From assembly GCA_022820645.1 (NCBI GenBank), contig JAJEFD010000019.1, positions 64,279 to 128,278 on the forward strand: a stretch of DNA of 64,000 bases, read 5' to 3'. Positions 1 to 44,984 of this stretch are shown in pieces. The notes below the pieces were generated by a model. It worked only from the letters and a program-made list of their open reading frames with translations, made no database searches and was not told the origin of the DNA. Numbering within the stretch: the stretch's first letter is position 1; the number at the start of each line of letters is the position of its first letter. Both the position numbers and the translations under genes were made by a program. Source of the stretch: Dehalococcoidia bacterium. GTDB taxonomy: Bacteria; Chloroflexota; Dehalococcoidia; Lucifugimonadales; Australimonadaceae.

Positions 1-582
1 CTCCGACGCGAGACCCTGCGAGAAGCGCTCCAGCGCCGCCTTCTGCGCGCCGTAGCCCGTGCCGCCCTTCAGCCGGTACTCCTCCGCGCCCTCGCCCACG
101 TACGGCCCGTGCCCCGGCCCGATCGCCGCCACCGACGAGATGTTGACGATGCGGCCGCTCCTGCGGGGGACCATGTCCTCCAGCGCGAAGCGGCTCAGGA
201 TGAACGGCGCGTGGACGTTCACCGCCCACGACCGCATCCACCGGTTCACGGCGTACTCCGTCACCGGCAGGAAGTACGAGAGCGCCGCGTTGTTCACCAG
301 CACGTCGACCGGCCCGTAGAGCGACCGCGCCTCCTGCACGAGCCGTTCGCACTCGTCCGCCTCCGAGATGTTGACCGCGACCGCCGACGCCTCGTGACCC
401 GCGTCGCGGATGCCCGCGACCGTGTGCTCGAGCGAGCCTTCGAGCGGATGGTCGCCCTCGTGGAGCGTGCGCGCCGCGCACACCACGCGACCGCCCTCCG
501 CCGCGAGCACCCGCGCGATCTCCGCCCCGATGCCCCGGCTCGCCCCGGTCACGATCACCGTCTGCCCGTCCAACTTCCCCAA
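1..582 (-). CDS. SDR-family oxidoreductase, truncated by the window edge
   Basis: Absent from the ORF track because it runs off the window. Manual reverse translation gives (M)GKLDGQTVIVTGASRGIGAEIARVLAAEG...VLVNNAA...NISS. It has the TGxxxGIG Rossmann motif. GGAGG lies 8 nt upstream of the TTG at 582; an alternative GTG is at 591. Confidence 0.7.
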   Translation of the reverse strand, partial: MGKLDGQTVIVTGASRGIGAEIARVLAAEGGRVVCAARTLHEGDHPLEGSLEHTVAGIRDAGHEASAVAVNISEADECERLVQEARSLYGPVDVLVNNAALSYFLPVTEYAVNRWMRSWAVNVHAPFILSRFALEDMVPRRSGRIVNISSVAAIGPGHGPYVGEGAEEYRLKGGTGYGAQKAALERFSQGLASE

Positions 583-635
583 CGCGCTCACCTCCAACCT
601 AGCCCGTGTATTGTAGTGGAGAGCAGGGGCAACCC

Positions 636-867
636 GTCGTTCCTGCGGAGGCAGGAACCTCGCATCCCAGCGGGGCGGAGCCCCGTCATTCTCGCGCAGG
701 CGGGAATCCAGGGTGCGCGGGCAGTGCACGCGGCGGTGCTTGATCCCCTCTCCCTTGAGTGGAGAGGGCTAGGGAGAGGGTGGACCGGCGGTGCGGGGTA
801 GGGTGCCTGGTGTAGGGGCATCCTCGTGGGTGCCCTTGCCCCGCTCATGGTGAGCCTGTCGAACCGC
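636..867. repeat. Composite REP array 1: REP-A variant 636-659, REP-A 685-711, REP-B 745-782, REP-C 809-835, REP-D-like 844-867
   Basis: Each unit recurs elsewhere in the window with a hairpin-forming core. The array sits directly left of the AT-shifted islet. Confidence 0.8.
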
Positions 868-893
868 GCCTGTCGCTCGACGCTTTTCTGATA

Positions 894-1523
894 CTACAAG
901 GGAAAGTTACGATATTTCATAGATATCAACGATGCATCAATCTCGCGTATGCCTTTAACTATGGTAGCGACAGTCTGATAATCGTCTTGTGGGTCAAATC
1001 GTCGCAAGGCTCTGCCAGACTTGTGAGCAGACTCCCCACGATTCTGTCCAAACTCGTCAATCTTCTGAATCCATTCTCTATTGATGTTTGCCTCCCGAAT
1101 GCCAACCGGAAAGAGTAATCGGAGTACATTTTCTTCTCTGATACCATGATTGGTGGCTCTCGCAAATTTGCTAAATTCTTGATGGGCCTTCTCTAGTTTG
1201 GATAACAAGTCCGGCCTAGATGCAAGGTCCAATCTAGTGGGGATATCGTGATTGTTATTCGCAGAGTAGGCCATGAGCGACACGGTTGGACGTCCAATAC
1301 GTCCCATGTTTTTCCATTCTTGAACGCATCGAGTTGCAGCATCTGTAGTGATTTCCTCAAGGCAGGCTTCTATTTCAGCATGAGCGAGGAGCCTATACCC
1401 AATAGCAAGGTCATACTCGCGATCAGAGTATGTTCCTGTCGGGCTAAACTCCCGTGGGAGGAAATGTCGACGTATTTCGCGTAGTCGACCTCTGAACTGC
1501 CGGTACCGGGAAGAGTTGGGCAA
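894..1523 (-). CDS. HEPN-like putative RNase (Rx4H motif), partner of the DUF262 protein
   Basis: 209-aa ORF in an AT-shifted segment. The motif NRGESAH (R162-x4-H167, nt 1023-1040) matches the HEPN Rx4-6H signature. The TTG start lies only 5 nt after the stop of the upstream DUF262 gene. The fold assignment was not verified by HMM. Confidence 0.55.
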   Translation of the reverse strand: MPNSSRYRQFRGRLREIRRHFLPREFSPTGTYSDREYDLAIGYRLLAHAEIEACLEEITTDAATRCVQEWKNMGRIGRPTVSLMAYSANNNHDIPTRLDLASRPDLLSKLEKAHQEFSKFARATNHGIREENVLRLLFPVGIREANINREWIQKIDEFGQNRGESAHKSGRALRRFDPQDDYQTVATIVKGIREIDASLISMKYRNFPL

Positions 1524-1528
1524 TTGAC

Positions 1529-2761
1529 CTACACCTGAATTCTGCCGCCGCTCATAAATGGAACAGCGATGTCGATACCTATGGCATCCTTCAGTACTCT
1601 ACCCCATGCGCTAAGTCTAATGAATGTGGCATCAACGGTCTTCGTAGTGCTCTGAATGGATTCGCGAAAGTCTCGATCCGAATCGCAAAGCAATCTGTAT
1701 GTCTCTTTCACGGCTTCTGCCTTGTCATGTGCGGCGGTTGCTATATCGCTTTGGGAGAAATAATAGGTCATCACATCGAACACAGCTCGATTAAATGGGC
1801 CCTGATACCTGTTTGAATCCCATCTCCGGAACGCTCCTGTATCAAATATACTAATCGTCGCATCAATCGCACGGTCGCAGAGTACAGCAACCTCTCTAAG
1901 CTCGGATTCTCTGTCAAGCCACTGCTGATTAAGAATATCGCAAGTGGAGTCTAGAAAGGCCTTAAGATCACCAGAATACTCGTGAAGCCGCTCATGGAAT
2001 CCAAAGAATCTCAGCAATATTTCTACATCTCGCATTCGGAAGTCGGGGGCTTTTAATTTTAGAGCACGTTTGATGGAGTCGCTATCAGCACTGTGGTCAG
2101 CGATGAAATCAATGAAAGGACCAGGTCGTAGTGCTTGCCTCAGTTCTTGGGTTGATAGGGGTAAGTTGCCAGTATTCAACCTGAGGAACACTCGGTACAA
2201 GAAGTTCTCATCGGTCCAATTCCGGATGATGACAGTTCTAATGGGCTGATTCTCATACGCAGGAACCTCTTTAGATAGAGCAGGGTCAACCATCATGTCA
2301 GCAAGATTCTTGCCTCCTAAATCAGGCTTAACGTTAAGGCCAGTGAGTCTGAACGTTTTGAACTCGGTATCTTCATCATCGGAAGCAAACCTGCGAAGGG
2401 CAAGTAACCTCTGCTTTCCGTCAATGACGATGTATTGGCCCCGGTTATCTGTCTTTTCGGCCAGCACTAACTGAGGCACGGGCAAACCTAAGAAGAGAGA
2501 TTCTATGAACGCACTCTTTCGTTCATCAGTCCATGCTTCCCTACGCTGAAACTTGGGATTCAAATCAATGTTGCCCTTTTTCAGCTGGGTGACAATGGTT
2601 TCTGTGGTCCAATCGGATGACGTAACCACTGCTTGAATGGGTTGAACGTCCAGATCTTTCTCTCGGAGGCCGGCAGGATCTTCATCGAAAAGATTGGCTA
2701 TGTCTATGGTCTCATCGTTTTCTGTAACCATATATCTTCCTTCCGTTTCCTGTGTTTGCAT
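1529..2761 (-). CDS. DUF262 (ParB-like nuclease/NTPase, GmrSD N-terminal type) domain protein
   Basis: 410-aa ORF. It carries the FQRREAW...LFLGLPVPQLVL...IDGKQRLLAL motifs (nt 2408-2551) typical of DUF262 (FQR / DGQQR). No obvious DUF1524/HNH C-terminal domain is present. An alternative start at ATG 2731 is preceded by GGAAGGAAG. Confidence 0.75.
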   Translation of the reverse strand: MQTQETEGRYMVTENDETIDIANLFDEDPAGLREKDLDVQPIQAVVTSSDWTTETIVTQLKKGNIDLNPKFQRREAWTDERKSAFIESLFLGLPVPQLVLAEKTDNRGQYIVIDGKQRLLALRRFASDDEDTEFKTFRLTGLNVKPDLGGKNLADMMVDPALSKEVPAYENQPIRTVIIRNWTDENFLYRVFLRLNTGNLPLSTQELRQALRPGPFIDFIADHSADSDSIKRALKLKAPDFRMRDVEILLRFFGFHERLHEYSGDLKAFLDSTCDILNQQWLDRESELREVAVLCDRAIDATISIFDTGAFRRWDSNRYQGPFNRAVFDVMTYYFSQSDIATAAHDKAEAVKETYRLLCDSDRDFRESIQSTTKTVDATFIRLSAWGRVLKDAIGIDIAVPFMSGGRIQV

Positions 2762-2922
2762 TCTTCGAGTCCAATGTGCGGCCTAAACGGATTGTGTCAT
2801 CATACTGAGGACGTGCAAATTTAGTCAATTGCGGTGATATCCAGCTGTGCTATGGTGAATTGGCGATAACCCCCTGCTCCCCCATCCCCCCATCCTCCCC
2901 ACCCCACGTCAAATCTCTGACA

Positions 2923-2966
2923 TGCGCCCGTTGCGCAGACGCCACACCCCTCCCTACGATGGGTGC
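2923..2966 (+). promoter_or_regulatory. Predicted promoter with palindromic operator of ATPase paralogue 1 (probably leaderless)
   Basis: TTGCGC (2931-2936), an 18-nt spacer, then TACGAT (2955-2960), with the ATG 6 nt after the -10 box and no SD. The palindrome TGCGC-CCGTT-GCGCA (2923-2937) overlaps the -35 box. The whole block is conserved upstream of paralogue 2. Confidence 0.45.
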
Positions 2967-4523
2967 ATGACTACGCAACCAATGCCAAGGCCCGAACACA
3001 TCATCACGCCCGACACCCTCCCGCCGGCGGAAAGGGCATACGTGGAGCGGCTCATCAGGGCCCTTCAGTGCGGAGTGCCCGGCTGCTCGTGTGCCGCAGG
3101 CCGCAAGTTCCACTGTCCGGCGCATCCCAACCCTGAAATAGCGACCCTCACCGTTGGCTTCGACCCCGGCTACGGCTATTCGTTCCACTGCCCCCGCTGC
3201 CCGCTCAACAAGATTCTCGAAGCCCTTGCGAAGCGGGGCCTCGCCCCTGAGTCGGAGCTGTTCACCTCCGCTGGCGCGCAGGACGCGGGGCTCGACCCCT
3301 TCTCCCTCTTCATCCCCCAGCCGCCGGACTGGCTCTGGCCTAACCGCATCCCTCTGGGCCAGCTCACCCTCATCGCTGGCTACCCCTCCTCCGGCAAGAC
3401 CTCCATCGCCCTCGACATAGCCGCCCGTGTCTCCCGTGGGGCATCCGCCCCCGACCAGCCGGGCGCCGCCTTCCCGAACGCTCCCGTTCTGCTGGCGACC
3501 TTCAACGGCAACCCCAGGGCCGGCGTACTCCCCGTCCTCCGCGCCTTCGGCGCGAATCTGGAACGCGTCTACTTCGCCGACCTCCTCGCTCAGAGCCACC
3601 CTGCCGACTACTACCCTGACGACCCGCCGCGCGAGGTAGACATCGAGGCGGCACGGAAGCAGGAGAAGGATCGCCAGTTCTACGTCTGGCTCAACAGCTT
3701 CCGCAAGCCGCCTACCATCGCCGAACTCACCGCACCGCCTCGGACAACGATTCCAACCCCTATGCCCTCACTCAGGCTTGGCGCTCCATGGCCCGGACTC
3801 AACCACACCATGACGCGGCTCGCCAACATGATCGCCCTGGGGAGCGCGGCCCTTCTTGTCGTCGATCAGGTGGAAGACCTGGCCGCCATGCACCGCGCCC
3901 AGGTGGCGACGGTCCTCGGCATGCTCAAGGCGCTCGCCGCCCGCTCCGGCGCAGCCGTCATCGCCCTCACCCACAACCCCGCGCAGAACTACCCGCGCGC
4001 CGTCACCGCCATGCAGCATCGCTTGGCGCAAGCCTCCGTCGTCTTCACTACCGCCGTCGTGGGACCCGGCGAGCGCCGCTTCCTCGTCCCTCTCCGTCCT
4101 GCCATGAGCGACGACGCCCCCGCCATCCCCTTCGTGCTTCCCCCTTCACCCGTCATTCCAGCGGAGGCTGGAATCCAGAGCAGCTCGCCCGACGCCTTCT
4201 CCGTCGCCTGGCGCAAACCCGTCTTCCCCGCCCACATCAAGGCCCTCGCTGACCCCACGCGTGACTACGGCGCAAGGACCCGCGCTGCTCAGGCATTCAT
4301 CACCCGCGCCCTCGCCGACGGCCCCCGCCCCGCCGCTGCGGTCGAGCGCGAGGCCGCTATGCAGGGCATATCCCGGCGCACCCTCTTCCGCGCCCGCGCC
4401 ACTTGCGGCATCAGGTCTACTCGCATCGGTGCCTCAGGAGGCCCGGGCTCGGGCACATGGCACTGGTCGCTCCCGCCGCGAAACACTCTGCAACAGGATG
4501 AGACACCGGACGATGGCGCATAA
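2967..4523 (+). CDS. Zn-ribbon / AAA_25-type (RepA/RecA-like) P-loop ATPase / C-terminal HTH protein, paralogue 1
   Basis: N-terminal CGVPGCSC..HCPAHPN..SFHCPRCP resembles a primase-type zinc-binding module. Walker A is GYPSSGKTS (3378-3401) and Walker B-like is LLVVDQVED. The C-terminal segment ARTRAAQAFITRAL..ISRRTLFRAR is HTH-like. The start is set at the ATG conserved with paralogue 2 (MTTQP). Confidence 0.7.
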   Translation: MTTQPMPRPEHIITPDTLPPAERAYVERLIRALQCGVPGCSCAAGRKFHCPAHPNPEIATLTVGFDPGYGYSFHCPRCPLNKILEALAKRGLAPESELFTSAGAQDAGLDPFSLFIPQPPDWLWPNRIPLGQLTLIAGYPSSGKTSIALDIAARVSRGASAPDQPGAAFPNAPVLLATFNGNPRAGVLPVLRAFGANLERVYFADLLAQSHPADYYPDDPPREVDIEAARKQEKDRQFYVWLNSFRKPPTIAELTAPPRTTIPTPMPSLRLGAPWPGLNHTMTRLANMIALGSAALLVVDQVEDLAAMHRAQVATVLGMLKALAARSGAAVIALTHNPAQNYPRAVTAMQHRLAQASVVFTTAVVGPGERRFLVPLRPAMSDDAPAIPFVLPPSPVIPAEAGIQSSSPDAFSVAWRKPVFPAHIKALADPTRDYGARTRAAQAFITRALADGPRPAAAVEREAAMQGISRRTLFRARATCGIRSTRIGASGGPGSGTWHWSLPPRNTLQQDETPDDGA

Positions 4524-4535
4524 ACTTGAAAACAC

Positions 4536-4682
4536 TGGCACTCTTGCGCTCTTAAGGGCGGGAAGCAGGCCACGGCCTTGTAAACACCCCCGATTAAGAG
4601 TGCCAAGAGTGCCAGATCGACGTACCCCGTCACTCGTTGAACCAGTGCTTAGAGTGCCAACACCAACCCCCGTTGGCACCCT
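4536..4682. repeat. Iteron-like repeats (AGAGTGCCA, 5 copies) around a conserved 18-nt box
   Basis: TGGCACTCT at 4536-4544 (inverted), the box GGGAAGCAGGCCACGGCC at 4560-4577, tandem AGAGTGCCA at 4597-4605 and 4606-4614, AGAGTGCCA at 4651-4659, and TGGCACCCT at 4674-4682 (inverted, 1 mismatch). Confidence 0.6.
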
Positions 4683-4705
4683 TAATCCCCTCCGCCGCCA
4701 ACCTC

Positions 4706-4965
4706 GTCATTCCAGCGAAGGCTGGAATCCATGGAGTGGCGCAGAGAACCGCTCGCAGGGGTGGTCAGGGGTGTCCGATCCCCTCTCCCTACAAGGGGAG
4801 AGGGCTGGGGCGAGGGTACTGCGGGTGGGGCATTGGGAGACTGTCATGCTGAGCGGAGCGCAGCGGAGTCGAAGCATCTCTCGGGTGCCCGGTGTAGGGG
4901 CATCCCTTGTGGGTGCCCTGCCTGGCCCACCTCTCCCCTTGGGAGAGGGGCTGGGGGTGAGGGTG
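4706..4965. repeat. Composite REP array 2: REP-A 4706-4731, REP-B 4780-4816, REP-D 4843-4885, REP-C 4891-4918, REP-B 4930-4965
   Basis: Direct sequence matches to the other copies. The array explains the spurious 247-aa N-terminal extension of ORF 4261-5718. Confidence 0.8.
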
Positions 4966-5001
4966 TGGCGTATTGCCCGGTTTCGCGCTAACGTTGCCCC
5001 C

Positions 5002-5718
5002 ATGCGCGAGAAGGTCTACCCCGACTTCGCCGCCGCCGTCGCCGACATCCCGGACGGGGCGTCCATCATGCTCGCAGGGTTTGCCGGGCCCGGCACCGCG
5101 CGGAACCTCATCGCCGCGCTCTACCGCCAGGGCGCGAAGGGGCTCACGCTCATCTCCAACACGCCCGGACGCTGGCAGGACGATCGCGTGGACTCCGGCC
5201 TGCTCGTGAAGGAGGGGCGCGTCGCGAAGGTCCACGCCGCGTTCACGGCGTCGCCGCACCCGTCCGTGCCGTCGCCGTTCACCGACCTGTACGAGGCGGG
5301 GAAGATCGAGGCGGAGCTGATGCCGCAGGGCACGCTCGCGGAGCGCATCCGCGCCGCCGGGGCGGGTATCGCCGCGTTCTACACGCCCACCGGCGTCGGG
5401 ACGGAGATGGCGGACGGCAAGGAGACGCGCGTCTTCGGCGGCAGGGAGTACGTGCTGGAGACTGCGCTCCACGCCGACTACGCGTTCGTCCGGGCGCGCC
5501 GCGCCGACCGCTTCGGCAATCTGCAGTACCACCGCACGCAGCGCAACTTCGGCCCCGTCATGGCGCGCGCGGCGAAGGTGACCATCGTCGAGGTCGACGA
5601 GCCGGTGGTGGAGGAGGGCGACATCGACCCCGACCACGTGCACACGCCGGGCATCTTCGTCGACCGCATCGTGGCCGTCCCGCCGGACGGGATCCAGGAG
5701 GTACCGCCCGAGCGATGA
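5002..5718 (+). CDS. scoA: 3-oxoacid CoA-transferase subunit A
   Basis: MREKVYPDFAAAVADIPDGASIMLAGFAGPG...; typical family I CoA-transferase A subunit. A 4-nt overlap couples it to subunit B. Confidence 0.85.
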   Translation: MREKVYPDFAAAVADIPDGASIMLAGFAGPGTARNLIAALYRQGAKGLTLISNTPGRWQDDRVDSGLLVKEGRVAKVHAAFTASPHPSVPSPFTDLYEAGKIEAELMPQGTLAERIRAAGAGIAAFYTPTGVGTEMADGKETRVFGGREYVLETALHADYAFVRARRADRFGNLQYHRTQRNFGPVMARAAKVTIVEVDEPVVEEGDIDPDHVHTPGIFVDRIVAVPPDGIQEVPPER

Positions 5719-6395
5719 CGGAACACCTCAGACAGCCCCTCGACCGGCAGACGATGGCCAACCGGCTCGCGATGGAGTTCCACGACGGCTGGGTGGTCAA
5801 CCTCGGCATCGGCATCCCGACGCTCTGCTCCAACTTCGTGCACCCGGACCGGCACGTCGTCTTCCAGTCGGAGAACGGGCTGGTGAACTACGGCCCGCTG
5901 GCCGAGCGCGGCGAGGAGGACCCGAACCTCGTGAACGCGGGCGGGCAGTACGTGGTGGAGATGGCGGGCATGGCCATCCTCGACCACGCGGACTCGTTCG
6001 CGCTCATCCGGGCGGGCTACGTGGACGTGACCGTGCTCGGCGCGTACGAGGTCGCCGCGAACGGCGACTTCGCCAACTGGAAGGTGGCCGGCGCGAAAGG
6101 GGGCGGCATCGGCGGCGCGATGGACCTCGCCGTCGGCGCGAAGAACGTCTTCCTGGCGCTGGAGCACACGACGCGCGACGGCAAACCCCGGCTGGTCGAG
6201 CGGTGCGCGTTGCCGGTGACCGCGGTGGGGGTTGTCAAGCTCGTGGCGACGAACCTGGGCCTGTTCGAGATCACGGAGCAGGGGTTCGTGCTCACGGAGA
6301 TCGCGCCCGGCTACACGCCGGAGGACGTGCAGGCCGTCACCGGCGCCCCGTTGACCGTCTCGCCGGAACTGCGCGAGTTCGCGCGGGTAAGTTGA
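5715..6395 (+). CDS. scoB: 3-oxoacid CoA-transferase subunit B
   Basis: ...NLGIGIPTLCSNFV...FQSENGLVNYGP...; contains the SENG motif of the B subunit. Confidence 0.85.
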   Translation: MTEHLRQPLDRQTMANRLAMEFHDGWVVNLGIGIPTLCSNFVHPDRHVVFQSENGLVNYGPLAERGEEDPNLVNAGGQYVVEMAGMAILDHADSFALIRAGYVDVTVLGAYEVAANGDFANWKVAGAKGGGIGGAMDLAVGAKNVFLALEHTTRDGKPRLVERCALPVTAVGVVKLVATNLGLFEITEQGFVLTEIAPGYTPEDVQAVTGAPLTVSPELREFARVS

Positions 6396-6441
6396 TGGTT
6401 TTCCGTCGTTAATACTGCATGAACCCGGCGTTAAACCTGCT

Positions 6442-7959
6442 ATGCTTAACTTGTCGCAGGAAGCGTCGGAGAACTGGATGGATCCGGTCAATTGGATGGA
6501 ACGGCTGGCCTCGCACTACGAGGCGATGCGCAGCCGGTACCCGGAAGAGCAGCTGGTCATCCTGTTCGATATCGACGGCACGATACTCGACACGCGCTAC
6601 CTCGTTCTCACCGTTCTCCAGTCCTACGATGCGGCCCACGGAACGTCTTATTTCCGGAACCTTCGCGTACCGGAAGTGACGACACACGAGGACAATGTCC
6701 GGGAGCTGTTGGCACGGTTCGGGCTGTCCACAACTGAACGCGAGCGGATCGCGGCGTGGTATGAGCGCGCGTACTGGTCGCCGGATGCGGTGCTGTGGGC
6801 GCACCGTCCGTTCTCCGGGGTCATGGAGGTCATGCGGTGGTTCCAGATACAGCCCGATACGTTCGTGGGACTGAACACCGGCAGGACGGAGACGATCCGC
6901 GCGGAGACGCTGGACTGTCTGAATGAGCTGGGCAAGGAGTACAAGGTCCGGTTCACCAACGACCTGCTGCACATGAACCCGGGCCCCCGGGACCGGAACG
7001 TTCCGCGGGTGAAGGCTGCCGGGGTCCTGCAGTTCCAGCAGGCCGGATACCGGGTGTTCGCCGCAGTGGACAACGAGCCGGCCAACCTGGCGGCGATCGC
7101 CGAGGTGGACCCCTCCCACGAGATCATGCTGCTGCACGCGGACACGATCTTCGAGTCCCAACGGAAGGCGCTGCCGCCGCGCTCCGTCAGCGGGGACGTG
7201 TACGACCTCACCCAACTGGCCCAGGAGACGGACCTGCCGCGGCACGTCCAGCTCGTGTGGCACGGGATCAACGACGAGCGCAACCTGCACCAGTTCCTGA
7301 TGTCCGACGTGGCATGGGGCGAGGTGGACGTGCGCCTGGACCCGGCATCCGAGCAGCTGGTGCTCCGGCACGACCCGCTGGACGGCGCTCATCCGTGCCA
7401 CCGGCAGGACCTGCTGCCGCTGGAAGACGTGCTGGAGGCCGTGGGCGCCATCGGGAGGTCCATCAAGCTCGACCTGAAGGAAGGCGGCCCGGTGGTCCAC
7501 GAGAGCCTGGCGGCGTTGCGGGCGGCCGGTTTCGACGATTCCCGGGTCTGGTTCAACGCCAACGCCACCCTCCTGGGGAAGGAGGGGTTCGGGATCCTGC
7601 AGGACGCGTACCCCTCCGCCATCTTCCAGGTCCCCATCGATGCCATGATTCCCATCCTGTTGAACAGGCCGGAGGAGGGGCTGGAGTGCCTTGAAGAGCT
7701 GCGCTCCTGGGGCATCAACCGGCTGTCGGTCAAGTGGGACAAGCCGCAGATAAGCAAGTTGGTGGACCAGCTGAACGCGTGGGGGTTCGAGACCAACGTC
7801 TACAACGTGCCGGACCTGAAGGCGTTTCTGAGGACGGCGCTCCTGCTGCCCCGGTCCATCACGTCCGACTTCAACTTCCCGCAGTGGCACTACTTCGGCA
7901 GGGGCTCAGGGCAGGAGGGCAAGTACCACGAGTACTCCTTGGAGACCCAGGCGTCCTGA
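6442..7959 (+). CDS. HAD-family phosphatase fused to a GDPD/PI-PLC-like phosphodiesterase domain
   Basis: N-terminal half carries HAD motifs I-IV: DIDGT, GLNTGR, a Lys motif, VDNEP. The C-terminal WHGIND..GEVDVRL..LVLRHD resembles the GDPD/PLC-like TIM-barrel signature. GC content looks slightly lower than in the neighbours. Confidence 0.5.
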   Translation: MLNLSQEASENWMDPVNWMERLASHYEAMRSRYPEEQLVILFDIDGTILDTRYLVLTVLQSYDAAHGTSYFRNLRVPEVTTHEDNVRELLARFGLSTTERERIAAWYERAYWSPDAVLWAHRPFSGVMEVMRWFQIQPDTFVGLNTGRTETIRAETLDCLNELGKEYKVRFTNDLLHMNPGPRDRNVPRVKAAGVLQFQQAGYRVFAAVDNEPANLAAIAEVDPSHEIMLLHADTIFESQRKALPPRSVSGDVYDLTQLAQETDLPRHVQLVWHGINDERNLHQFLMSDVAWGEVDVRLDPASEQLVLRHDPLDGAHPCHRQDLLPLEDVLEAVGAIGRSIKLDLKEGGPVVHESLAALRAAGFDDSRVWFNANATLLGKEGFGILQDAYPSAIFQVPIDAMIPILLNRPEEGLECLEELRSWGINRLSVKWDKPQISKLVDQLNAWGFETNVYNVPDLKAFLRTALLLPRSITSDFNFPQWHYFGRGSGQEGKYHEYSLETQAS

Positions 7960-7969
7960 CCTCGTGACG

Positions 7970-8050
7970 CCCTCACCCGCGCGCTTAAGCGCTTTGCCCT
8001 CTCCCCCAGGAGAGGGGGACAAGGGCACCCACGAGGGGCGCCCCTACACC
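7970..8050. repeat. REP-B (7970-8017) plus inverted REP-C (8023-8050)
   Basis: CCCTCACCC..GCCCTCTCCCCCAGGAGAGGGGG followed by GGGCACCCACGAGGGGCGCCCCTACACC. Confidence 0.75.
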
Positions 8051-8068
8051 GGGCAGGAAGGCCACCTC

Positions 8069-8734
8069 TTATTGAGCGGCGCCGTCCGGCTGGCCCAGCA
8101 CGCGCGCCATGAAGCGCTCCGCTATGTCCAGTCCGCGCACGTCGATGCTGTGGCCGAGGCCCGGCAGCAGGTAGGCCTCCACGGGGAAGCCGAGGTCGGC
8201 GAGCGTCTGTCCGGCGTCCGCCAGCGCATCCGGAGGCACCACCGGGTCCTGGTCGCCGTGGACGAGGACGATGGGCGGCTTGTGGCGCGCCTCGTCCGCG
8301 AGCCACTCAGGGAAGAGCAGCCTTCCGCTGAGCCCGACGACGCCCGCCACCGGACGCTCCATGCGCGGCGCGGTGTAGAGGGAGGTCATGCACCCCTGCG
8401 AGAAGCCGATGAGGACGCACCGGTCCGGCGTCAGCGCGTACTCGTCCAGCAGTTCGCCGACGTAGGTCTCGACGATGCGTCCCGCTTCCCGCAGGCCTTC
8501 CGCTCGGGCGTCCGGCGGTTCGATCGGGAACCAGCGGCGGCCGAAGCCGGCCTCCACGTAGGGTTGCGGCGCGTCCGGCGAATGGAAGGCCATGTGGGGG
8601 AAGCGGGGGCCGAGCGCCATCGTGAGGCCGATGAGGTCGTTGCCGTCGGCGCCGAGGCCGTGCAGCAGGATGCCGAGCGAGCCAGGAGCGCCGCCCGCGT
8701 ACGGTGCGCGGGACGGTCCGTTGAGTATGGGCAT
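8069..8734 (-). CDS. Phospholipase/carboxylesterase-family alpha/beta hydrolase
   Basis: GFSQG nucleophile elbow and an HG..D..V..HGDQD pattern. The start at MPILNG is preceded by AAGGAG. Confidence 0.75.
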   Translation of the reverse strand: MPILNGPSRAPYAGGAPGSLGILLHGLGADGNDLIGLTMALGPRFPHMAFHSPDAPQPYVEAGFGRRWFPIEPPDARAEGLREAGRIVETYVGELLDEYALTPDRCVLIGFSQGCMTSLYTAPRMERPVAGVVGLSGRLLFPEWLADEARHKPPIVLVHGDQDPVVPPDALADAGQTLADLGFPVEAYLLPGLGHSIDVRGLDIAERFMARVLGQPDGAAQ

Positions 8735-8771
8735 GGGGTGTCTCCTTCGTGCGTTGTGAGATAATACCCGC

Positions 8772-9500
8772 ATGACGACACGGACACGAACCCGCTCGAC
8801 CGGCTCCACGCGCATCTCCCACACGGCGGAGAACTACCTGCTCTCGCTCGCGATCCTGCAGGAGGACGGGCTGAAGCCGCACATGAGCGAGCTCGCGTCC
8901 TACCTGCGCCGCATCCCGGAGGGCGAGGAGGTCGGCACGACGCTCGCCTCGGTCTCCGGCATGGTGCAGCGCATGGCGAAGGACGGGCTGCTCCAGGTGA
9001 ACAGGGAGAAGCGGATCGACCTCACGCCTGCGGGGTTCGCGCGCGCCCGCGACGTGGTGCGCCGCCACCGCCTCGCCGAGCGGCTGCTCGTGGACGTGCT
9101 CGGCGTGCCGCTGGAGCTCGCCGAGGCCGAGGCGCACAGCCTGGAGCACGGCATCTCGCCCAACCTGATCGCGCGCATCGAGGAGCGGCTCGGCCACCCG
9201 GACACCTGCCCCTACGGACGGCCCATCTACAAGGCGGACGACACCGCGCTGCGCACGTCCGATCCCGGTACGTTCCGCCTGAGCGAGGCGAAGAAGGGCC
9301 CGACCTACGTCGTGACGCGCATCCCGGACGAGGACTTCCCGCTGCTGTCGTACCTCGTGAAGAGCGACGTGCTCCCCGGCAGGCGCATCATCATCGAGGA
9401 GATCGCGGACTACCGGGGTGTCGTGGACGTCAGCCGCGACGGCCAGCAGGTCTCGCTCGGCATGGACGTCGCGGCGCGCGTCTGGGTGCGTCCCGCCTAA
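8772..9500 (+). CDS. DtxR/MntR-family metal-dependent transcriptional regulator with a FeoA/SH3-like C-terminal domain
   Basis: ENYLLSL..., RRHRLAERLL, EAHSLEHGIS motifs. Confidence 0.8.
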   Translation: MTTRTRTRSTGSTRISHTAENYLLSLAILQEDGLKPHMSELASYLRRIPEGEEVGTTLASVSGMVQRMAKDGLLQVNREKRIDLTPAGFARARDVVRRHRLAERLLVDVLGVPLELAEAEAHSLEHGISPNLIARIEERLGHPDTCPYGRPIYKADDTALRTSDPGTFRLSEAKKGPTYVVTRIPDEDFPLLSYLVKSDVLPGRRIIIEEIADYRGVVDVSRDGQQVSLGMDVAARVWVRPA

Positions 9501-12333: not shown

Positions 12334-12338
12334 AAGGG

Positions 12339-12701: not shown

Positions 12702-12740
12702 CGCTTTCGTCCTTTCGCGGGCTGTTGCGTAACTCCAGTG

Positions 12741-12773
12741 CCCTCACTCTAGCCCTCTCCCTCAGGAGAGGGG
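12741..12773. repeat. REP-B
   Basis: CCCTCACTCTAGCCCTCTCCCTCAGGAGAGGGG. Confidence 0.75.
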
Positions 12774-12789
12774 ATCAAGCAGCACGATA

Positions 12790-40607: not shown

Positions 40608-40612
40608 CGACC

Positions 40613-40782
40613 CGTCATTCCCGCACCGGCGGGAATCCAGAGTGACCGGGCAGGTCACACGGTGGGGTGTGGGAGTGGGCGGCCTGTCATTTCGAGCGAA
40701 GCCGAGAAATCTCTCGGGCTGCCTGGTGTAGGGGCATCCCTTGTGGGTGCCCTTGCCCTCATCGTTCCAGCAAAGCTGGAAT
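40613..40782. repeat. Composite REP array: REP-A 40613-40639, REP-D variant 40685-40717, REP-C 40724-40751, REP-A variant 40760-40782
   Basis: Direct matches. The array lies left of the second AT-shifted islet. Confidence 0.8.
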
Positions 40783-40932: not shown

Positions 40933-41814
40933 ATGAGTCGAGCAGCGTCACCCGTCTACCTCGACAACGTAAACGCTGAGGGCGCATCCTCCCCTGTAAG
41001 GCAGCGACGTCATCCGCAAGGCAAGCGGAAGATTGCCTTCGGGTGGTACGGCGGGAAGTTCAGCCACCTTGCATGGCTGCTTCCACTGTTGCCTCAGGCG
41101 CACCACTACTGCGAGCCCTTCGGTGGTTCAGCGGCGGTGCTCCTGAACCGTCCTCCTTCACCGGTAGAGACATACAATGACTTGGATGGTGAGGTAACGA
41201 CCTTCTTCCGGATGCTCCGTGCTCAGCCTGATGAGCTTGTCCGCCAGATTGCCCTAACCCCCTTCTCGCGGGAAGAGTTCTACATTGCCTGTCAGAGCGA
41301 AGAGGGCCTCACCGACCTTGAGCGTGCGAGGCGTTTCTTTGTGCGTGCTCGACAAGTGCGGACTGGTCTTGCTCAAACGGCCACGCTAGGGCGATGGGCA
41401 AATTGCAAGCAGACGAGCCGCGCAGGAATGTCTGGGGTCGTATCTCGCTGGCTCGGAAGCGTGGATTCTCTACCAGAGATTGCTGAGCGCCTTGTCCGGG
41501 TACAAATCGAGAACAGGCCCGCTGAGGATGTAATTCGCCTCTACGACCACAGTGACACGCTCTTCTACTGCGACCCTCCCTATCCCCATGAGTCGCGAGG
41601 CGACACACATGCCTACGGGGACGAAATGAGCGACCACGAACACCGCACCCTCGCGAAGTTGCTGAATGAGGTCAAAGGGAAGGTAGCCGTTTCTGGCTAT
41701 CGCTGTGAACTCATGGAAGATCTCTACAGCGATTTCCGGCGAATCGATGCCCCTGAGAAGTTGTGCCATTCGGTAAAGTCCGCACGGTTCGAGTCCCTGT
41801 GGGTCAACTATTAG
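40933..41814 (+). CDS. Dam-family (D12 class) N6-adenine DNA methyltransferase
   Basis: WYGGK, EPFGGSAAV (FxGxG SAM site) and DPPY (41572-41583). GC content is visibly lower than in the flanks. Confidence 0.85.
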   Translation: MSRAASPVYLDNVNAEGASSPVRQRRHPQGKRKIAFGWYGGKFSHLAWLLPLLPQAHHYCEPFGGSAAVLLNRPPSPVETYNDLDGEVTTFFRMLRAQPDELVRQIALTPFSREEFYIACQSEEGLTDLERARRFFVRARQVRTGLAQTATLGRWANCKQTSRAGMSGVVSRWLGSVDSLPEIAERLVRVQIENRPAEDVIRLYDHSDTLFYCDPPYPHESRGDTHAYGDEMSDHEHRTLAKLLNEVKGKVAVSGYRCELMEDLYSDFRRIDAPEKLCHSVKSARFESLWVNY

Positions 41815-41823
41815 TGAGGCTTT

Positions 41824-42903
41824 ATGCAGGTTGACTACGAAGTGAGCCGGGCACTCCTGGATGAACGGTTCGCTGCTGTGTCCACGGCAGCGATTCAAGG
41901 CGCTCGTCCGGCTACCCCTGCGAGCGTGGATACCTCCCTTAGGACATTATTCGAATCCAGCACTCAGTCCTACCGCGAAGCCTTGCTAGGCTGTGCGGTT
42001 GCCAGATGGTATGACCGACGAATCGACATCACGCTTCCGTATGTAGGGCTGGGTGACTTAGCATTTAGCGGTCGAATGCTAGACCAGAAGGTGGTAAATC
42101 CGTTCCTCCGCGACAACCATATCCCTTGTTCTGGTAACCCCTACCTCGCCGTGTTCAGGCGCTCGGTCGCATTTAATGCTGACACACGCAGCGGCCTACT
42201 TGATAAAGAAGGATATGACTCCTTTCTGTCCCTAATCAAACACGTTCGCACTCTAAGCAAAAGCAACATTGTGAATTTCATTGACCACCTACTGTTCCAC
42301 TTCTACGACCTGCGTGAGGCATCGCAAGTGCCCATAGCCCAGCTTGGCCGCATCAGCCTTGAACAGATAGCGACGCTGATGGACGGGCTGATAGCCATCC
42401 CGAGTGGCGGACGATTCCCTATGTACCTCGTTGAGGCTGCACTCGTGGGCATTCGAGGGCGATTCAACCTTGGCTGGGAGATTGAAGTACAAGGGATCAA
42501 CGTGGCGGATGCTCCGGGTGGGGCTGGAGGAGACGTGACCGTACGCGAGAACGGCGTGATTGCGTTTGCTGCCGAGGTGACGGAACGCGAAGTAAGCTCA
42601 GAGCGAGTTGTGGCGACCTTCCAGACGAAGATTGCCCCGAATGCCATTGCCGATTACCTCTTTCTGATTACAGATGGTGTCGCTGAACAAGCCCGCATCC
42701 AAGCTCGATCTTATTTTGCGCAAGGTCACGAGGTGAACTTCATCCAGATCAAGGACTGGATTCACCAGACCCTCGTGACTGTTGGGGCTGCGGGCAGGGA
42801 TGCCTTCTTCACTGCCCTGATGGCGCGGTTAGCGGATGAAGAAACTCCGAAGGCGATGAAGACGGCATGGAATGACCAAGTGGATCAGCTCACTCGCGTT
42901 TAG
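41824..42903 (+). CDS. Uncharacterised protein, candidate restriction endonuclease partner of the methyltransferase
   Basis: 359 aa, starting 9 nt downstream of the MTase gene on the same strand and in the same AT-shifted block. It has a possible PD-(D/E)xK-like segment GGDVTV-x10-AAEVTER. The family was not verified. Confidence 0.45.
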   Translation: MQVDYEVSRALLDERFAAVSTAAIQGARPATPASVDTSLRTLFESSTQSYREALLGCAVARWYDRRIDITLPYVGLGDLAFSGRMLDQKVVNPFLRDNHIPCSGNPYLAVFRRSVAFNADTRSGLLDKEGYDSFLSLIKHVRTLSKSNIVNFIDHLLFHFYDLREASQVPIAQLGRISLEQIATLMDGLIAIPSGGRFPMYLVEAALVGIRGRFNLGWEIEVQGINVADAPGGAGGDVTVRENGVIAFAAEVTEREVSSERVVATFQTKIAPNAIADYLFLITDGVAEQARIQARSYFAQGHEVNFIQIKDWIHQTLVTVGAAGRDAFFTALMARLADEETPKAMKTAWNDQVDQLTRV

Positions 42904-42972
42904 GCATTCCCAACTACCTCAGAGCGGGTAGACAGCGTCGCTCCCCCGATCCTGCCCATCCCCATTGTGACA

Positions 42973-43016
42973 CGCGCCCGTTGCGCGGTCGTCACGCCCC
43001 TCTCTACGATGGGTGC
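42973..43016 (+). promoter_or_regulatory. Predicted promoter with palindromic operator of ATPase paralogue 2
   Basis: TTGCGC, 18 nt, TACGAT, 6 nt, ATG. The palindrome CGCGC-CCGTT-GCGCG shows a compensatory change relative to copy 1. Confidence 0.45.
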
Positions 43017-44642
43017 ATGACTACGCAACCCGTCCCTGCGCCCGAACAAACCTATACGTTGGACACCCTCCCGCCCCAGGACAGGGCATACGCCGACCGT
43101 CTCACCCGCGCCCTTCGCTGCGGTGTACCCGGCTGCGGGTGCGCCGACGGCCCCATGGTCCACTGTCCCTCCCACAGCCACGCTGAAGTCCCGACGCTCA
43201 CCGTCTCCTACGACCCCGACCGCGGCTTCTCCTTCCAATGCCTCGTCTGCCCCCCGTTCCGCATCAAGGATGCTCTCGTGAAACGCGGCATCGCGCCGGA
43301 GGGGGAGTTCTATATGTCCGGCGCCGCGCAGGCAGCCGGGCTCCAGCCCTTCAGGTTCCTTATCCAGCAACCACAGGACTGGCTCTGGCCCAACCGCATC
43401 CCTATCGGCAAGCTCACTCTTATCGCCGGATACCCCTCATCCGGTAAAACGTCCATCGCGCTCGACATCGCCGCCCGTGTCTCACGAGGCGCAGCCGCCC
43501 CCGATCAGCCGGACGCCCCGTTCCCTTCCGCCCCCGTCGTCCTCGCGCCCCTCAACGGCAACCCGAAGGCCGACATCCTCCCCACACTCCGCCATTTTGG
43601 TGCCGACCTCGACCGTGTCTACCTTGCAGACCTCCTCTCCCCCACGCACCCCGTCGACTACTACCCCAACGACCCGCCCGATGACGAGGACGACGGGTAC
43701 TACTACGAAGAAGACGACAATCTCGACGATGACGGCGACGACGACGTCGAGTACCTCTTCGACAACGACGGCAACGAGATAACTGTTCCCCGCCGCAAGC
43801 CGGTCGGCATGAAAGCCCCCGTTCGCGACCCGTTCTGGACGCCCGCCACCTCCGGCTCGAAACTCACCGCGCCCTGGCCCAGCCTCGACAAGGTCATGGG
43901 GCGGCTTGCCAACTACATCGCTGAGGGGAAAGCCGCCCTCCTCGTCGTCGACCAGGTCGAAGACCTTGCCGCCATGCACCGCACCCATGTCGCAACTGTC
44001 CTGGGTATGCTCAAGGCGCTCGCTGCGCGCTCGGGTGCGGCGGTCGTCGCCCTTGCCCACAATCCCGCGCAGAACTACCCCCGCGCCGTCACCGCCATGC
44101 AGAACCGCCTGCCTCTCGCCTCCGTCGTCTTCACCACCGCCGTAGTCGAACCGGGCGGACGCCGCTTCCTCGTCCCCCTCCGCCCCGCCATGAGCGACGA
44201 TGCCCCTGCCATCCCCTTTGCGCTGCCCCCCTCAACCGTCATTCCCCCTTCATCCGTCATTCCCGCGAAGGCGGGAATCCAGAGCCCCCCTTCCGGCTTC
44301 ACCGTCGCTTGGCGCAAACCCGTCTTCCCCGCGCATATGAAGGCCCTCACCGAGCCCCGCCCTAACGACGGCGCGAAGACCCGCGCCGCGCAATCCCTCC
44401 TCACCCGCGCGCTCGCCGACGGCCCCCGCCCCGCCGCAGAGGTCGAGCGCGAGGCCGCTCTGGTCGGCGTCTCGAAGTCCACCCTGGTCCGGGCTCGCGC
44501 GCTCTGCAACGTCAAAGCGTTCCGCGTCAGCATCGCTAACGGCCCCAACGGCGCGGGGGCGTGGCACTGGTGCTTGCCCCCACGCAACACTTTGGAACGG
44601 AATGAGACGCCTGCAACATCCGCGGAAATCGTAAACACATGA
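43017..44642 (+). CDS. Zn-ribbon / AAA_25-type P-loop ATPase / C-terminal HTH protein, paralogue 2
   Basis: Colinear with 2967-4523, with the same Cys/His pattern, Walker A GYPSSGKTS (43428-43451) and LLVVDQVED. It carries an acidic low-complexity insert and an embedded REP-A. Confidence 0.7.
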   Translation: MTTQPVPAPEQTYTLDTLPPQDRAYADRLTRALRCGVPGCGCADGPMVHCPSHSHAEVPTLTVSYDPDRGFSFQCLVCPPFRIKDALVKRGIAPEGEFYMSGAAQAAGLQPFRFLIQQPQDWLWPNRIPIGKLTLIAGYPSSGKTSIALDIAARVSRGAAAPDQPDAPFPSAPVVLAPLNGNPKADILPTLRHFGADLDRVYLADLLSPTHPVDYYPNDPPDDEDDGYYYEEDDNLDDDGDDDVEYLFDNDGNEITVPRRKPVGMKAPVRDPFWTPATSGSKLTAPWPSLDKVMGRLANYIAEGKAALLVVDQVEDLAAMHRTHVATVLGMLKALAARSGAAVVALAHNPAQNYPRAVTAMQNRLPLASVVFTTAVVEPGGRRFLVPLRPAMSDDAPAIPFALPPSTVIPPSSVIPAKAGIQSPPSGFTVAWRKPVFPAHMKALTEPRPNDGAKTRAAQSLLTRALADGPRPAAEVEREAALVGVSKSTLVRARALCNVKAFRVSIANGPNGAGAWHWCLPPRNTLERNETPATSAEIVNT

Positions 44643-44653
44643 GATTGTTGGTT

Positions 44654-44790
44654 CCTTGGTCACGGGAAGCAGGCCGTGGCCATGGAAACGCCCTTCAGAA
44701 GGAGACCAAGGATGTCAAAACAGGCCCGTTCTCCACTCCTGGGATCCAGACCAAGAATGTCATCCGGTGCCCCTGTTGACACTCTTGGTC
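44654..44790. repeat. Iteron-like repeats (AGACCAAGRATGTCA) around the conserved 18-nt box
   Basis: CCTTGGTC at 44654-44661 (inverted, partial), box GGGAAGCAGGCCGTGGCC at 44664-44681, AGACCAAGGATGTCA at 44703-44717, AGACCAAGAATGTCA at 44748-44762, TGACACTCTTGGTC at 44777-44790 (inverted, 13/14). Confidence 0.6.
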
Positions 44791-44799
44791 GCACCCCTC

Positions 44800-44950
44800 G
44801 TCATTCCCGCACCGGCGCGAACCGCCCTGCTTGGTCCCTTCCCCCTCGATGGGGGAAGGTTAGAGCCTGCCCCGCACTCGATGCGGGGATGGGGGTGACT
44901 CGGAGGCGTGGGGGCGGTGCCTGGTGTAGGGGCGTCTCTCGTGGGCGCCC
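44800..44950. repeat. Composite REP array: degenerate REP-A 44800-44823, REP-E 44836-44898, REP-C 44923-44950
   Basis: Direct matches to the other copies. Confidence 0.7.
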
Positions 44951-44984
44951 TTCGGACGCGGTGAGGGTTGCCCTCGATTCCGCC

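Follow-up and report, generated by a model that had tools for sequence, protein, structure and literature searches.

Two related ATPase loci

The window analysed in this work is a stretch of 64,000 nucleotides (nt) of a Dehalococcoidia bacterium (phylum Chloroflexota; assembly GCA_022820645.1, contig JAJEFD010000019.1, positions 64,279 to 128,278 of the forward strand) in which two related ATPase genes each stand beside an islet of candidate defence genes with a low guanine plus cytosine content (GC). Each ATPase gene is the single gene of a conserved unit of ~1.9 kb, here called the module, which consists of a leader, the gene itself and a non-coding tail; the variable DNA that lies 5' of the leader is called the cargo. 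The features of the two modules and their cargo are the following, with E values in brackets and wHTH standing for winged helix-turn-helix (HTH).

2885..2966, plus strand: leader of module 1, with a TGACA box, the imperfect inverted repeat GACaCGCGC..GCGCGgTC and TACGAT just before the ATG
2967..4523, plus strand: ATPase 1, 518 amino acids (aa), with an N-terminal Cys/His zinc domain, a RecA/RepA-like AAA_25 core and a C-terminal wHTH
4524..4690, plus strand: tail of module 1, with a core at 4561-4577, five AAGAGTGCCA copies (two inverted, three direct) and a terminal hairpin at the right end
42942..43016, plus strand: leader of module 2, conserved
43017..44642, plus strand: ATPase 2, 541 aa, with a longer acidic insert
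44643..44792, plus strand: tail of module 2, with a core at 44665-44681 and iteron-like copies of the AAGAATGTCA type
894..1523, minus strand: cargo 1b, HEPN-like protein of 209 aa, GC 47% (Pfam HEPN_RiboL-PSP 1.1e-4, under the Pfam cut-off; no PADLOC match)
1529..2761, minus strand: cargo 1a, GmrSD_N/DUF262 protein, GC 47% (Pfam 1e-22; PADLOC NsnA 4.4e-69 and PD-T4-2_A 1.2e-33)
2799..2828, minus strand: sigma-70-like promoter-like site, TTGACT-18-TATGAT, a candidate driver of the DUF262 and HEPN genes by its match to the consensus alone
40933..41814, plus strand: cargo 2a, D12/Dam-type N6-adenine DNA methyltransferase, GC 58% (Pfam 8.6e-25; PADLOC MTase_II 4.6e-53)
41824..42903, plus strand: cargo 2b, candidate type II restriction endonuclease, GC 55% (PADLOC REase_II 3.5e-5, a weak match to one model; no Pfam match)

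The two ATPases have 352 of 552 residues identical (64%; BLASTP E=0), and the two loci are 74% identical in nucleotides over 2885-3628 / 42942-43678 and 3782-4589 / 43868-44693, which bears out the colinear, diverged paralogues described in an earlier note on this DNA that was made from the sequence alone. Several other statements of that note agree with what we found. The cargo left of each conserved block is indeed different and AT-shifted (DUF262 and HEPN genes on the opposite strand, versus a methyltransferase and a weak REase_II match on the same strand), repetitive extragenic palindromic (REP) sequences of the REP-A type lie in direct orientation left of, inside the coding sequence of and right of both loci, and the labels Zn-ribbon, AAA_25 and HTH are matched by a Cys/His pattern, a significant AAA_25 hit and a helix-helix-helix-hairpin order, respectively. 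The limits it proposed for the homology stood at the 3' end, where the tail runs ~150-170 nt past the stop codon up to REP-A; at the 5' end, the alignment coordinates 2885 / 42942 place the beginning of the homology ~75-82 nt, and not ~100 nt, upstream of the ATGACTAC start.

Both islets stand out by composition, since GC is 48% at 1001-3000 (islet 1) and 56-58% at 41001-43000 (islet 2) versus 63-73% in the rest of the window. Islet 2 lies between a CoxG-like gene on the left (stop at 40607) and orn on the right (stop at 44985); viewed as a type II restriction-modification (R-M) pair, its methyltransferase is clear and its endonuclease is weakly matched. In islet 1, the PADLOC match of the DUF262 protein is to NsnA, the DUF262 protein of the Menshen system NsnABC (PMC12065111). 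NsnB and NsnC are absent from islet 1, which has a HEPN-like partner instead and is therefore not a Menshen system; it is best called a two-gene DUF262+HEPN candidate system. The true start of the DUF262 gene is likely the second Met, which gives a product of 400 aa and is so called in L098 (related loci and scaffolds are given L numbers throughout). L098 (ENA ERZ23491428, KELL22-1 scaffold_92, 192 kb) is 99.99% identical to window positions 1-10523, and despite this near-identical contig the best protein-search match of the DUF262 protein was only 76% identical. A within-strain swap of the cargo, suspected from that value, was rejected as a false lead because of the match to L098.

For the comparisons below, a scan of one genome per species gave 80 loci, 76 of which come from Dehalococcoidia/Chloroflexota metagenome-assembled genomes (MAGs).

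Architecture of the ATPase

Pfam assigns both proteins to AAA_25 (PF13481; 54.4 bits and 1.6e-14 for ATPase 1, 50.9 bits and 2e-13 for ATPase 2, with a cut-off of 27) and gives no other convincing match for either of them. The family-conserved start is found at 2967 and 43017, and the Walker-type motifs GxPSSGKT and LLVVDQVEDL are invariant among 33 aligned sequences. In the predicted model, the core has the KaiC and RAD51-paralogue RecA folds as its top Foldseek matches (probability 1.00), and residues 434-501 would form a wHTH of three helices and a beta-hairpin, with a predicted local distance difference test score (pLDDT) of about 80. As the mean pLDDT of the whole protein is just 59.8, the RecA core and the wHTH are the sole usable parts of the model. 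The linker that joins them is variable in the homologue alignment and carries repeated in-frame REP insertions. A WYL domain is absent from the ATPases by Pfam, so the architecture of the BrxR/CapW-type regulators was not found. An acidic low-complexity insert with D/E runs lies between Walker A and Walker B and varies in length among paralogues (~43700-43790 in ATPase 2; alignment columns 270-330).

In the N-terminal ~90 residues, the alignment has invariant C35, C40, C42, H49, C50, H53, C75 and C78. The motif HCPxH..PTLTV..FxCxxC of this domain resembles the CHC2 finger of DnaG primases; with hhalign, CPxH..PTLTV..FxCxxC was paired with residues 40-67 of Escherichia coli DnaG at E=0.04 and a probability of 1.3%, with a DnaG sequence that may be inexact. 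Pfam yields for this domain a weak DUF6788 match alone (37/38 members, best 2.4e-4), and a PDB profile search returned nothing relevant. A primase-type zinc finger remains a lead because neither the Pfam nor the PDB profile search gives confirmation. Likewise, no primase catalytic domain was detected by Pfam in the ATPases of the window.

Leader and tail of the module

We call group A the family of the window ATPases and group B a second subgroup that is 45-48% identical to it. In the alignment of 32 group-A upstream regions, conservation breaks off sharply on the 5' side at ~65-80 nt from the ATG, and the DNA upstream of this edge is unrelated from locus to locus. The leader bears a putative promoter, and its consensus is TGTTGAwT..TGACACGCGCCCGTTGCGC...CCCCTCCCTACgATGGGTGCATG, and the 20 group-B loci have the same leader layout and the same sharp 5' edge.

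On the other side of the gene, pairwise BLAST of the window loci ends 51-66 nt past the stop codon, and an alignment of 30 loci follows the conserved tail further, up to ~195 nt in the family; in the window both tails end right before a REP-A copy, at 4703 / 44798. The core of the tail is nearly invariant, GGGAAGCAGGCCGTGGCCTTG, and the 17-mer at its centre, GGAAGCAGGCCRYGGCC, is found in the window two times only, once per tail, versus 0.00 expected; CACTCNT is also conserved. There are in addition ~5 copies per tail of a 10-mer, AAG-N5-CA, arranged as an inverted pair, a tandem direct pair, one direct and one inverted copy, and the central bases of this 10-mer vary by module: AAGAGTGCCA in window copy 1, AAGAATGTCA in window copy 2, AAGGGGGCCA in L006 and AAGGTGGCCA in L026. 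Such a module-specific 9-10-mer is present 4-6 times within ~200 nt after the stop codon and zero times elsewhere in the 20-kb loci. In tails of group B, the same core precedes direct repeats of 33-nt period, in 3.2-3.3 copies according to Tandem Repeats Finder and up to six in a 9-mer scan. The final inverted copy of L032 and L033 is only a few bases away from the stop codon of orn, the flanking gene, and therefore the tail is the true right end of the unit. A transposon with symmetrical ends was ruled out, because the cargo-distal end is devoid of the module-specific 9-mer.

We read the tail repeats as putative protein-binding iterons. That the tail is instead a structured RNA (a 3' untranslated region, a small RNA or an attenuator) seems improbable to us. 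RNAalifold folds the terminal inverted pair into a hairpin with seven compensated pairs, that is, pairs that survive two-sided changes, and finds an invariant small hairpin in the core. However, one and the same 10-mer makes up each of the two hairpins and also the tandem direct copies within the locus, which folding alone does not demand; moreover, the 33-nt repeats of the group-B tails are all direct, and the tail has neither an Rfam match nor a terminator-like U-run. At gathering thresholds, Rfam finds in the window only a tRNA at 29.5 kb, and no known RNA in tail or leader.

Co-variation of the wHTH and the tail repeats

Copies of the 10-mer have a mean identity of 0.77 within a locus versus 0.64-0.66 between loci, and the identity of these putative iterons follows that of the C-terminal 105 aa of the ATPase (Spearman 0.42) more closely than that of the N-terminal 390 aa (0.20). 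Similarly, tail k-mer similarity correlates 0.57 with the identity of the C-part and 0.22 with that of the N-part, and the two parts correlate with each other at 0.21; the pairs compared are not independent, such that these correlations are supportive, not proof. Copy 1 of the window gives a particular case: its N-part is 95% identical to that of L001, located at the same site, and its C-part only 66%, being closest to that of L034 (83%), a copy from another site with the same iteron type. It appears, therefore, that wHTH and tail have been exchanged together, as would be expected of a DNA-binding domain and the sites it recognises. The linker is roughly where the histories of the N-part and the C-part separate.

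Cargo polarity and defence content

The cargo is invariably located 5' of the ATPase, whichever the orientation of the unit. Averaged over 64 loci, GC dips only within the 2.5 kb upstream of the ATPase (64, 64, 62, 60 and 62%, versus 66-69% elsewhere), and the nearest gene has a GC of 0.62 or less upstream in 37/68 loci and downstream in 4/66. The same polarity holds for defence genes: PADLOC matched 164 families for 147 upstream proteins versus 2 for 139 downstream proteins, a count that is inflated by redundant methyltransferase models, with the contrast being plain regardless. The content of the cargo is rather diverse, and several large proteins in it belong to no family. Examples are:

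L063 (site 2, sister genome): TmtA-like helicase of 1541 aa
L060: TIR/ThsB-like protein
L054: OLD-like AAA_15/21-TOPRIM nuclease
L043: HTH-M78 protein (CapP/RmrA-like)
L016: DUF4238 protein
L019: trypsin-like protease

The 147 upstream proteins include five IS110 transposases and three large serine recombinases; tyrosine integrase is absent from their 25 most frequent Pfam families. In L052 (8019-9824) and L055 (8154-10001), the genes for large serine recombinases end at the 5' edge of a group-B module and may represent an element caught at its landing site. The downstream flank of L052 recurs in inverted form in L053 and L059, at only ~70 nt from the ATPase, and the related modules of these two loci have no serine recombinase. 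Taken as 'complete' elements, L052 and L055 were uninformative because their upstream genes lack Pfam matches, save one Cro/C1-type HTH.

We consider it highly unlikely that the ATPase is a shared component that works with the upstream defence genes, or a dedicated regulator that controls their transcription. It does adjoin the cargo in most loci and it does have an HTH domain, but of the 37 nearest cargo genes 23 lie on the strand opposite to the ATPase and 14 on the same strand, the cargo has its own promoter-like site and the repeats are on the side far from the cargo. Furthermore, the would-be partners are unrelated to each other, being R-M pairs in some loci and single proteins of 1541 aa or a serine recombinase in others, and cargo-free copies exist.

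Orthologous sites

A site was defined by both flanks being common at a nucleotide identity of at least 85%. At four sites, modules of both orientations relative to the flanks occur, split as follows:

Site 1: 12 loci, 5 / 7
Site 2: 9 loci, 4 / 5
Site 3: 7 loci, 2 / 5
Site 4: 5 loci, 4 / 1

Identity to the window is 88-95% for the flanks and 71-92% for the ATPase genes of the same sites (92% for L001 and 71-88% for all others), and cargo at the same sites has zero nucleotide match to that of the window. Every genome carries different cargo at sites 1 and 2. From flank to leader, the length of the cargo goes from 0.24 kb in L012, which has essentially none, to 7.2 kb in L020; a second cargo-free copy is L083, at site 1. 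ATPase pairs from the same site are no closer than pairs from different sites (0.74 vs 0.72 for the N-part and 0.69 vs 0.65 for the C-part). In the sister genome L001, the closest relative, the window segment 620-2917 is replaced, with the right breakpoint at the TGACA box of the leader.

A module-free version of site 2 was found in L085, a more distant relative (Orn 85% identical), where orn and coxG are only 27 nt apart. L086 and L087 have unrelated content at site 2, without the ATPase. In L084, a related genome with other orn neighbours, a Cas9 gene (11554-14847) lies 3 kb from orn. Two of the three short scaffolds that bear the ATPase, L095 (1-139) and L096 (1-258), begin 140-260 nt upstream of the ATG, as strain-level heterogeneity of the cargo would yield.

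REP arrays

Both islets are bracketed by composite REP arrays (A-C/D-B) in direct orientation, and further copies lie in frame in the ATPase genes:

633..830, plus strand: left array of islet 1, with REP-E 633-662, REP-A 682-711, REP-C 735-781 and REP-B 801-830, inside the segment that is replaced in L001
4149..4178, plus strand: REP-A in frame in the core-wHTH linker of ATPase 1, peptide VIPAEAGIQ
4703..4960, plus strand: right array of islet 1, direct with the left one, with REP-A 4703-4732, REP-C 4770-4817 and REP-B 4883-4905
40612..40760, plus strand: left array of islet 2, starting right after the CoxG-like stop, with REP-A 40612-40642 and REP-B 40720-40754
44226..44284, plus strand: REP-A (44254-44284) plus a short duplication, in frame in the linker of ATPase 2 (VIPPSSVIPAKAGIQ)
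44798..44960, plus strand: right array of islet 2, running to the orn stop, with REP-A-like 44798-44828 and REP-B 44918-44952

In-frame REPs are found in the linker of many homologues, always in the same orientation (alignment columns 470-540), and give peptides such as VIPAKAGIQ and SFLRRQEPRS. No unique crossover sequence of the att type was found at the ends of the islets, where the REPs are generic repeats of the genome.

We counted REP-A and REP-B in loci L001-L076. Near the module (-3 kb to +0.7 kb, ~385 kb in all) 173 REPs are co-oriented with the ATPase and 12 are opposite (0.48 per kb), versus 69 and 31 farther away (0.085 per kb in ~1.18 Mb), so that density is ~5-6 times higher near the module; co-orientation is kept where the unit is flipped with respect to its flanks. 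In the variable region of site 2, 17/17 REPs follow the ATPase in both classes of flank orientation, and therefore the arrays belong to the unit or are oriented by it, not by the flanks. This orientation lock could have come about by co-transfer with the unit, by Campbell-type recombination that leaves direct arrays, or by a strand bias of REP insertion that results from local DNA transactions.

Family distribution and ancestry

The best 120 database matches of the ATPase are 58-100% identical and nearly all unnamed metagenome proteins, and the few with a name are 'AAA family ATPase' of Chloroflexota. The MAGs of origin include 'SAR202 cluster' bins and bins with names that suggest sponge metagenomes. 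Genomes carry from 2 to 8 or more copies of the module; there are eight loci in the multi-contig MAG CBDCOP and six on the 3.2-Mb chromosome OY764542. Proteins with the full-length architecture are rare, since a profile search of 1.84 billion representatives gave only 45 proteins under 1e-30.

Outside the clade there are few relatives, in Planctomycetota and Terriglobia. L080 encodes a 696-aa fusion of Prim-Pol and AAA_25 adjoining a tyrosine integrase, and in L077 an AAA_25 gene also adjoins a tyrosine integrase. Among the 150 best distant representatives, 40 have at least 600 aa, and in those read the ATPase match starts 270-520 residues in, which means that these distant relatives have a long N-terminal extension. 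One of the long relatives matches the RSF1010 RepA helicase (1g8y) at 1.5e-5; the window protein itself does not match 1g8y. The Prim-Pol- and integrase-linked outgroups, the long extensions and the 1g8y match thus point to a descent of the family from replication proteins of integrative elements. Where these relatives have an N-terminal primase region, the branch in Dehalococcoidia appears to have the zinc domain instead. An origin in a known phage or plasmid found no backing: matches in IMG/VR are only distant and mainly to the Walker-A region, and relatives in PLSDB and in phages do not exceed 35% identity.

This ancestry bears on another account, in which the ATPase-wHTH protein is a stand-alone defence gene directed against mobile genetic elements, that is, an immune or exclusion factor (e.g., a RecA-like sensor of foreign DNA), co-located with other defence genes by ordinary clustering in defence islands and provided with tail repeats that act as regulatory or decoy sites. 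Rapid diversification and domain shuffling are typical of conflict genes, the cargo-free copies are intact, there are many paralogues per genome, and PADLOC has matches of the ATPase to PDC-M07A (1.2e-5) and mad8 (2.1e-5). Nevertheless, we regard this account as quite improbable, since these matches are weak and partial (residues 308-354 only for PDC-M07A, the ATPase core only for mad8), clustering predicts neither the strict 5' polarity of the cargo nor flips of the whole unit, and the nearest outgroups are AAA_25 proteins that adjoin integrases, one of them fused to Prim-Pol.

Nature of the module

The best explanation for the order of leader, gene and putative iterons, together with the ancestry of the gene, is a replication-type module, i.e., an initiator-helicase with its origin. 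Occurrence in both orientations, an empty site in a relative, shuffling from site to site and cargo that is foreign and polar all speak for a unit that is, or once was, inserted, and not for ancestral core DNA. Tentatively, and with much room left for doubt, we read the modules as backbones of small integrated elements, similar to replicons or satellites, that would pair an initiator-helicase with a cognate iteron origin and collect defence cargo at their 5' edge. According to this reading, the module would be what survives of plasmid- or satellite-like elements at 2 to 8 or more intergenic sites per SAR202-type genome. The wHTH would bind the iterons, and the ATPase would act as helicase or initiator and replicate the unit, in place or after excision. 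The functions for integration, excision and inversion may come in trans, for which the candidates are serine recombinases, which adjoin two copies, an activity of the REP/RAYT type (RAYT, REP-associated tyrosine transposase), and homologous recombination in the direct REP arrays. Low-GC foreign DNA, mostly defence genes, would enter at a single fixed edge immediately 5' of the leader, and in this way the module would anchor a polar defence islet with a fast turnover.

A more specific version of this reading seems improbable. It holds that a single protein (zinc domain, RecA-like ATPase and wHTH) with its cognate iterons makes up a new kind of self-specified element that requires no integrase of its own. 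The element would either move and capture defence cassettes at its 5' edge or serve as one of several secondary origins of the chromosome, which upon induction over-replicate locally and thereby amplify or mobilise the defence genes beside them. DNA transactions of this local and strand-specific type could also cause the density and co-orientation of the REPs.

Several observations weigh against the reading of the modules as replicon- or satellite-like elements. The ATPase gene is host-like in composition (GC 68%, GC at third codon positions 81%) and the modules occupy the same sites across species, which, along with the invariant catalytic motifs, looks like long residence and selection for a benefit to the host. 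Domain searches found no integrase, transposase or relaxase in the six real ORFs (open reading frames) of the two islets, to which, as the earlier note had also stated, no tRNA is adjacent: the sole tRNA (29554-29628; Rfam at gathering thresholds, with ARAGORN in agreement) is 25 kb off. Such mobility genes are also lacking from almost all other copies. No extrachromosomal, excised or circular form was found, the three short metagenome contigs with the gene being chromosomal fragments, and IMG/VR, PLSDB and the phage records contain no close relatives. Regarding the presumed origin, tail GC is 59% versus ~67% for the genome and the lowest 30-nt window averages 43%, and GC windows revealed no clear AT-rich unwinding element; a 9-mer search of each locus found the cargo-distal end free of iteron copies and terminal repeats; and the inverted repeats of the tail are also compatible with a structured RNA. 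Finally, with hhalign, Pfam and PDB profiles the zinc domain could not be assigned to the primase-type finger.

Part of these points would fit a domesticated anchor, an alternative that we find unlikely though deserving of attention. The ATPase would be a resident, multi-copy gene selected by the host for a housekeeping or sensing role, and its leader or REP array would be an attachment site for incoming mobile elements, much like a tRNA gene, at which inserted elements decay and leave their defence genes behind, with orientation flips arising from local inversions between REPs. The same sites across species and the host-like GC are in line with it, as are the five IS110 transposases among the upstream genes, the right breakpoint of the cargo swap at the TGACA box, the two of three short assemblies that break 140-260 nt upstream of the ATG, and, at one group-B site, the large serine recombinase that, along with an ORFan-rich segment, immediately precedes the leader in L052 and L055 and is absent from L053 and L059. 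However, a domesticated anchor leaves unexplained the cognate iteron tail and its co-variation with the wHTH, the empty site of the relative, the divergence of same-site ATPases, which are as different as paralogues despite flanks that are ~90% identical, and the 17/17 REPs of site 2 that keep the orientation of the ATPase.

The earlier note had offered three alternatives for the two loci. The first, a family of integrase-less elements whose replication-type ATPase travels with the cargo, fits best of the three: the iteron-like tail, the integrase-linked outgroups, the flips, the empty site and the swap of defence cargo speak for it, and the host-like GC and the fixed sites against it. From the second, a conserved regulator or sensor that marks a defence hotspot, the idea of a resident anchor agrees with the fixed sites and that of a regulator is weakened by the far-side repeats, the 23 versus 14 strands and the cargo-free copies; on these same grounds the third, a shared component of modular defence systems, is the least supported. 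It had also named observations worth seeking. The neighbourhoods of homologues did have defence genes enriched upstream and cargo turnover at orthologous sites, and an empty site was found between orn and coxG in L085; circular or excised forms were not found. Of the domain relationships it suggested, AAA_25 was recovered, a match to RepA (1g8y) was not, and the primase-type finger reached E=0.04 only. The iteron-like tail, the orientation flips, the multi-copy family and the orientation lock of the REPs go beyond what it had described.

Comparison with known systems

Phage satellites of the SaPI/PICI type (Staphylococcus aureus pathogenicity islands and phage-inducible chromosomal islands) reportedly carry rep-ori modules. 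The likeness lies in a helicase-type Rep gene with a short-iteron origin immediately 3' of it, in the matched, element-specific Rep/ori pairs and in the accessory or defence cargo. PICIs differ by their size of about 8-15 kb, by having integrase, repressor, primase and packaging genes and by integrating at att sites, whereas the module has one gene, a RecA/AAA_25 ATPase, and no integrase, and occurs in 2-8 or more copies at conserved sites in either orientation. Satellites of the P4 type are said to carry defence hotspots, and their alpha protein is, like the ATPase, a single multidomain replication protein with a C-terminal domain that recognises iterons, encoded beside a variable defence hotspot. 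However, P4 alpha joins a primase and a superfamily 3 helicase and works on an iteron ori/crr, in elements with integrase and capsid-hijacking genes; in the module no primase catalytic domain was detected and the fold is predicted to be RecA-like.

RSF1010 RepA (PDB 1g8y) also belongs to Pfam AAA_25. This IncQ plasmid resembles the module in its AAA_25 helicase and in an iteron-based origin with hairpin-forming elements, and differs in being a free plasmid whose helicase, primase and iteron binding are split over three proteins, whereas the module is chromosomal and has its helicase-like core fused to the wHTH and the zinc domain. Archaeal orc1/cdc6-ORB origin pairs, several per chromosome, are said to have been captured from extrachromosomal elements; they too are several paralogous initiator genes per chromosome, each beside its own repeats of matched specificity. 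Those are AAA+ Orc proteins at demonstrated origins, and the module, a putative origin, is bacterial, RecA-like and linked to defence cargo.

Defence hotspots flanked by core genes and tRNA-anchored islands have reportedly been described. With them the islets have in common a variable, defence-rich content between core genes, cargo that differs among relatives and empty sites; the module is unlike such hotspots in being a non-core unit with cis repeats, always on one side of the cargo, that flips together with this cargo, and in that integrases are nearly always absent. Integrons also have a fixed anchor gene, a polar, promoter-proximal accumulation of cassettes and hairpin-forming repeats around them. 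They differ in the IntI tyrosine recombinase and attC sites, while the cassettes found here have their own promoter-like sites, lie in both orientations and are accompanied by generic REPs; an integron was rejected because IntI is absent.

Defence-carrying integrated elements and hotspots are an already known kind, and the module looks undescribed. Full-text searches of the literature (AAA_25/iteron, SAR202/sponge defence, DUF6788, satellite/hotspot) gave no description of the module or of ATPase-anchored islets in SAR202/Dehalococcoidia. What is unusual is a single-gene backbone with matched iterons and no integrase, in many copies per chromosome, with a strict polarity and an orientation lock of the REPs. 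If our reading is true, the abundant SAR202-type Dehalococcoidia, many from sponge metagenomes, build much of their variable immunity around one 1.9-kb marker, which would be a simple handle on new defence genes, as many adjoining cargo proteins are without a known family, and a tractable case of defence islets built and exchanged without a resident integrase. The matched pairs of wHTH and putative iterons would be a natural specificity code that is directly testable. If origins do fire at the modules, this would be the first time that several initiator-origin pairs of the plasmid type are found to be maintained naturally in a single bacterial chromosome; even as mere relics, the modules would be a new, portable hotspot marker for the phylum.

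Other repeats in the window

Apart from the two modules, the window has three tandem paralogous units of ~1.47 kb at 59845-64000 (ORFs of 385-430 aa, minus strand) with repeats of the (GGCGTN)n type. A fourth copy of this unit, with (GGCGTN)n-type repeats too, is located 7.9 kb upstream, at 51973-53319. Another pair of paralogous segments, of ~520 nt and 73-79% identical, lies at 10702-11225 and 26284-26813.

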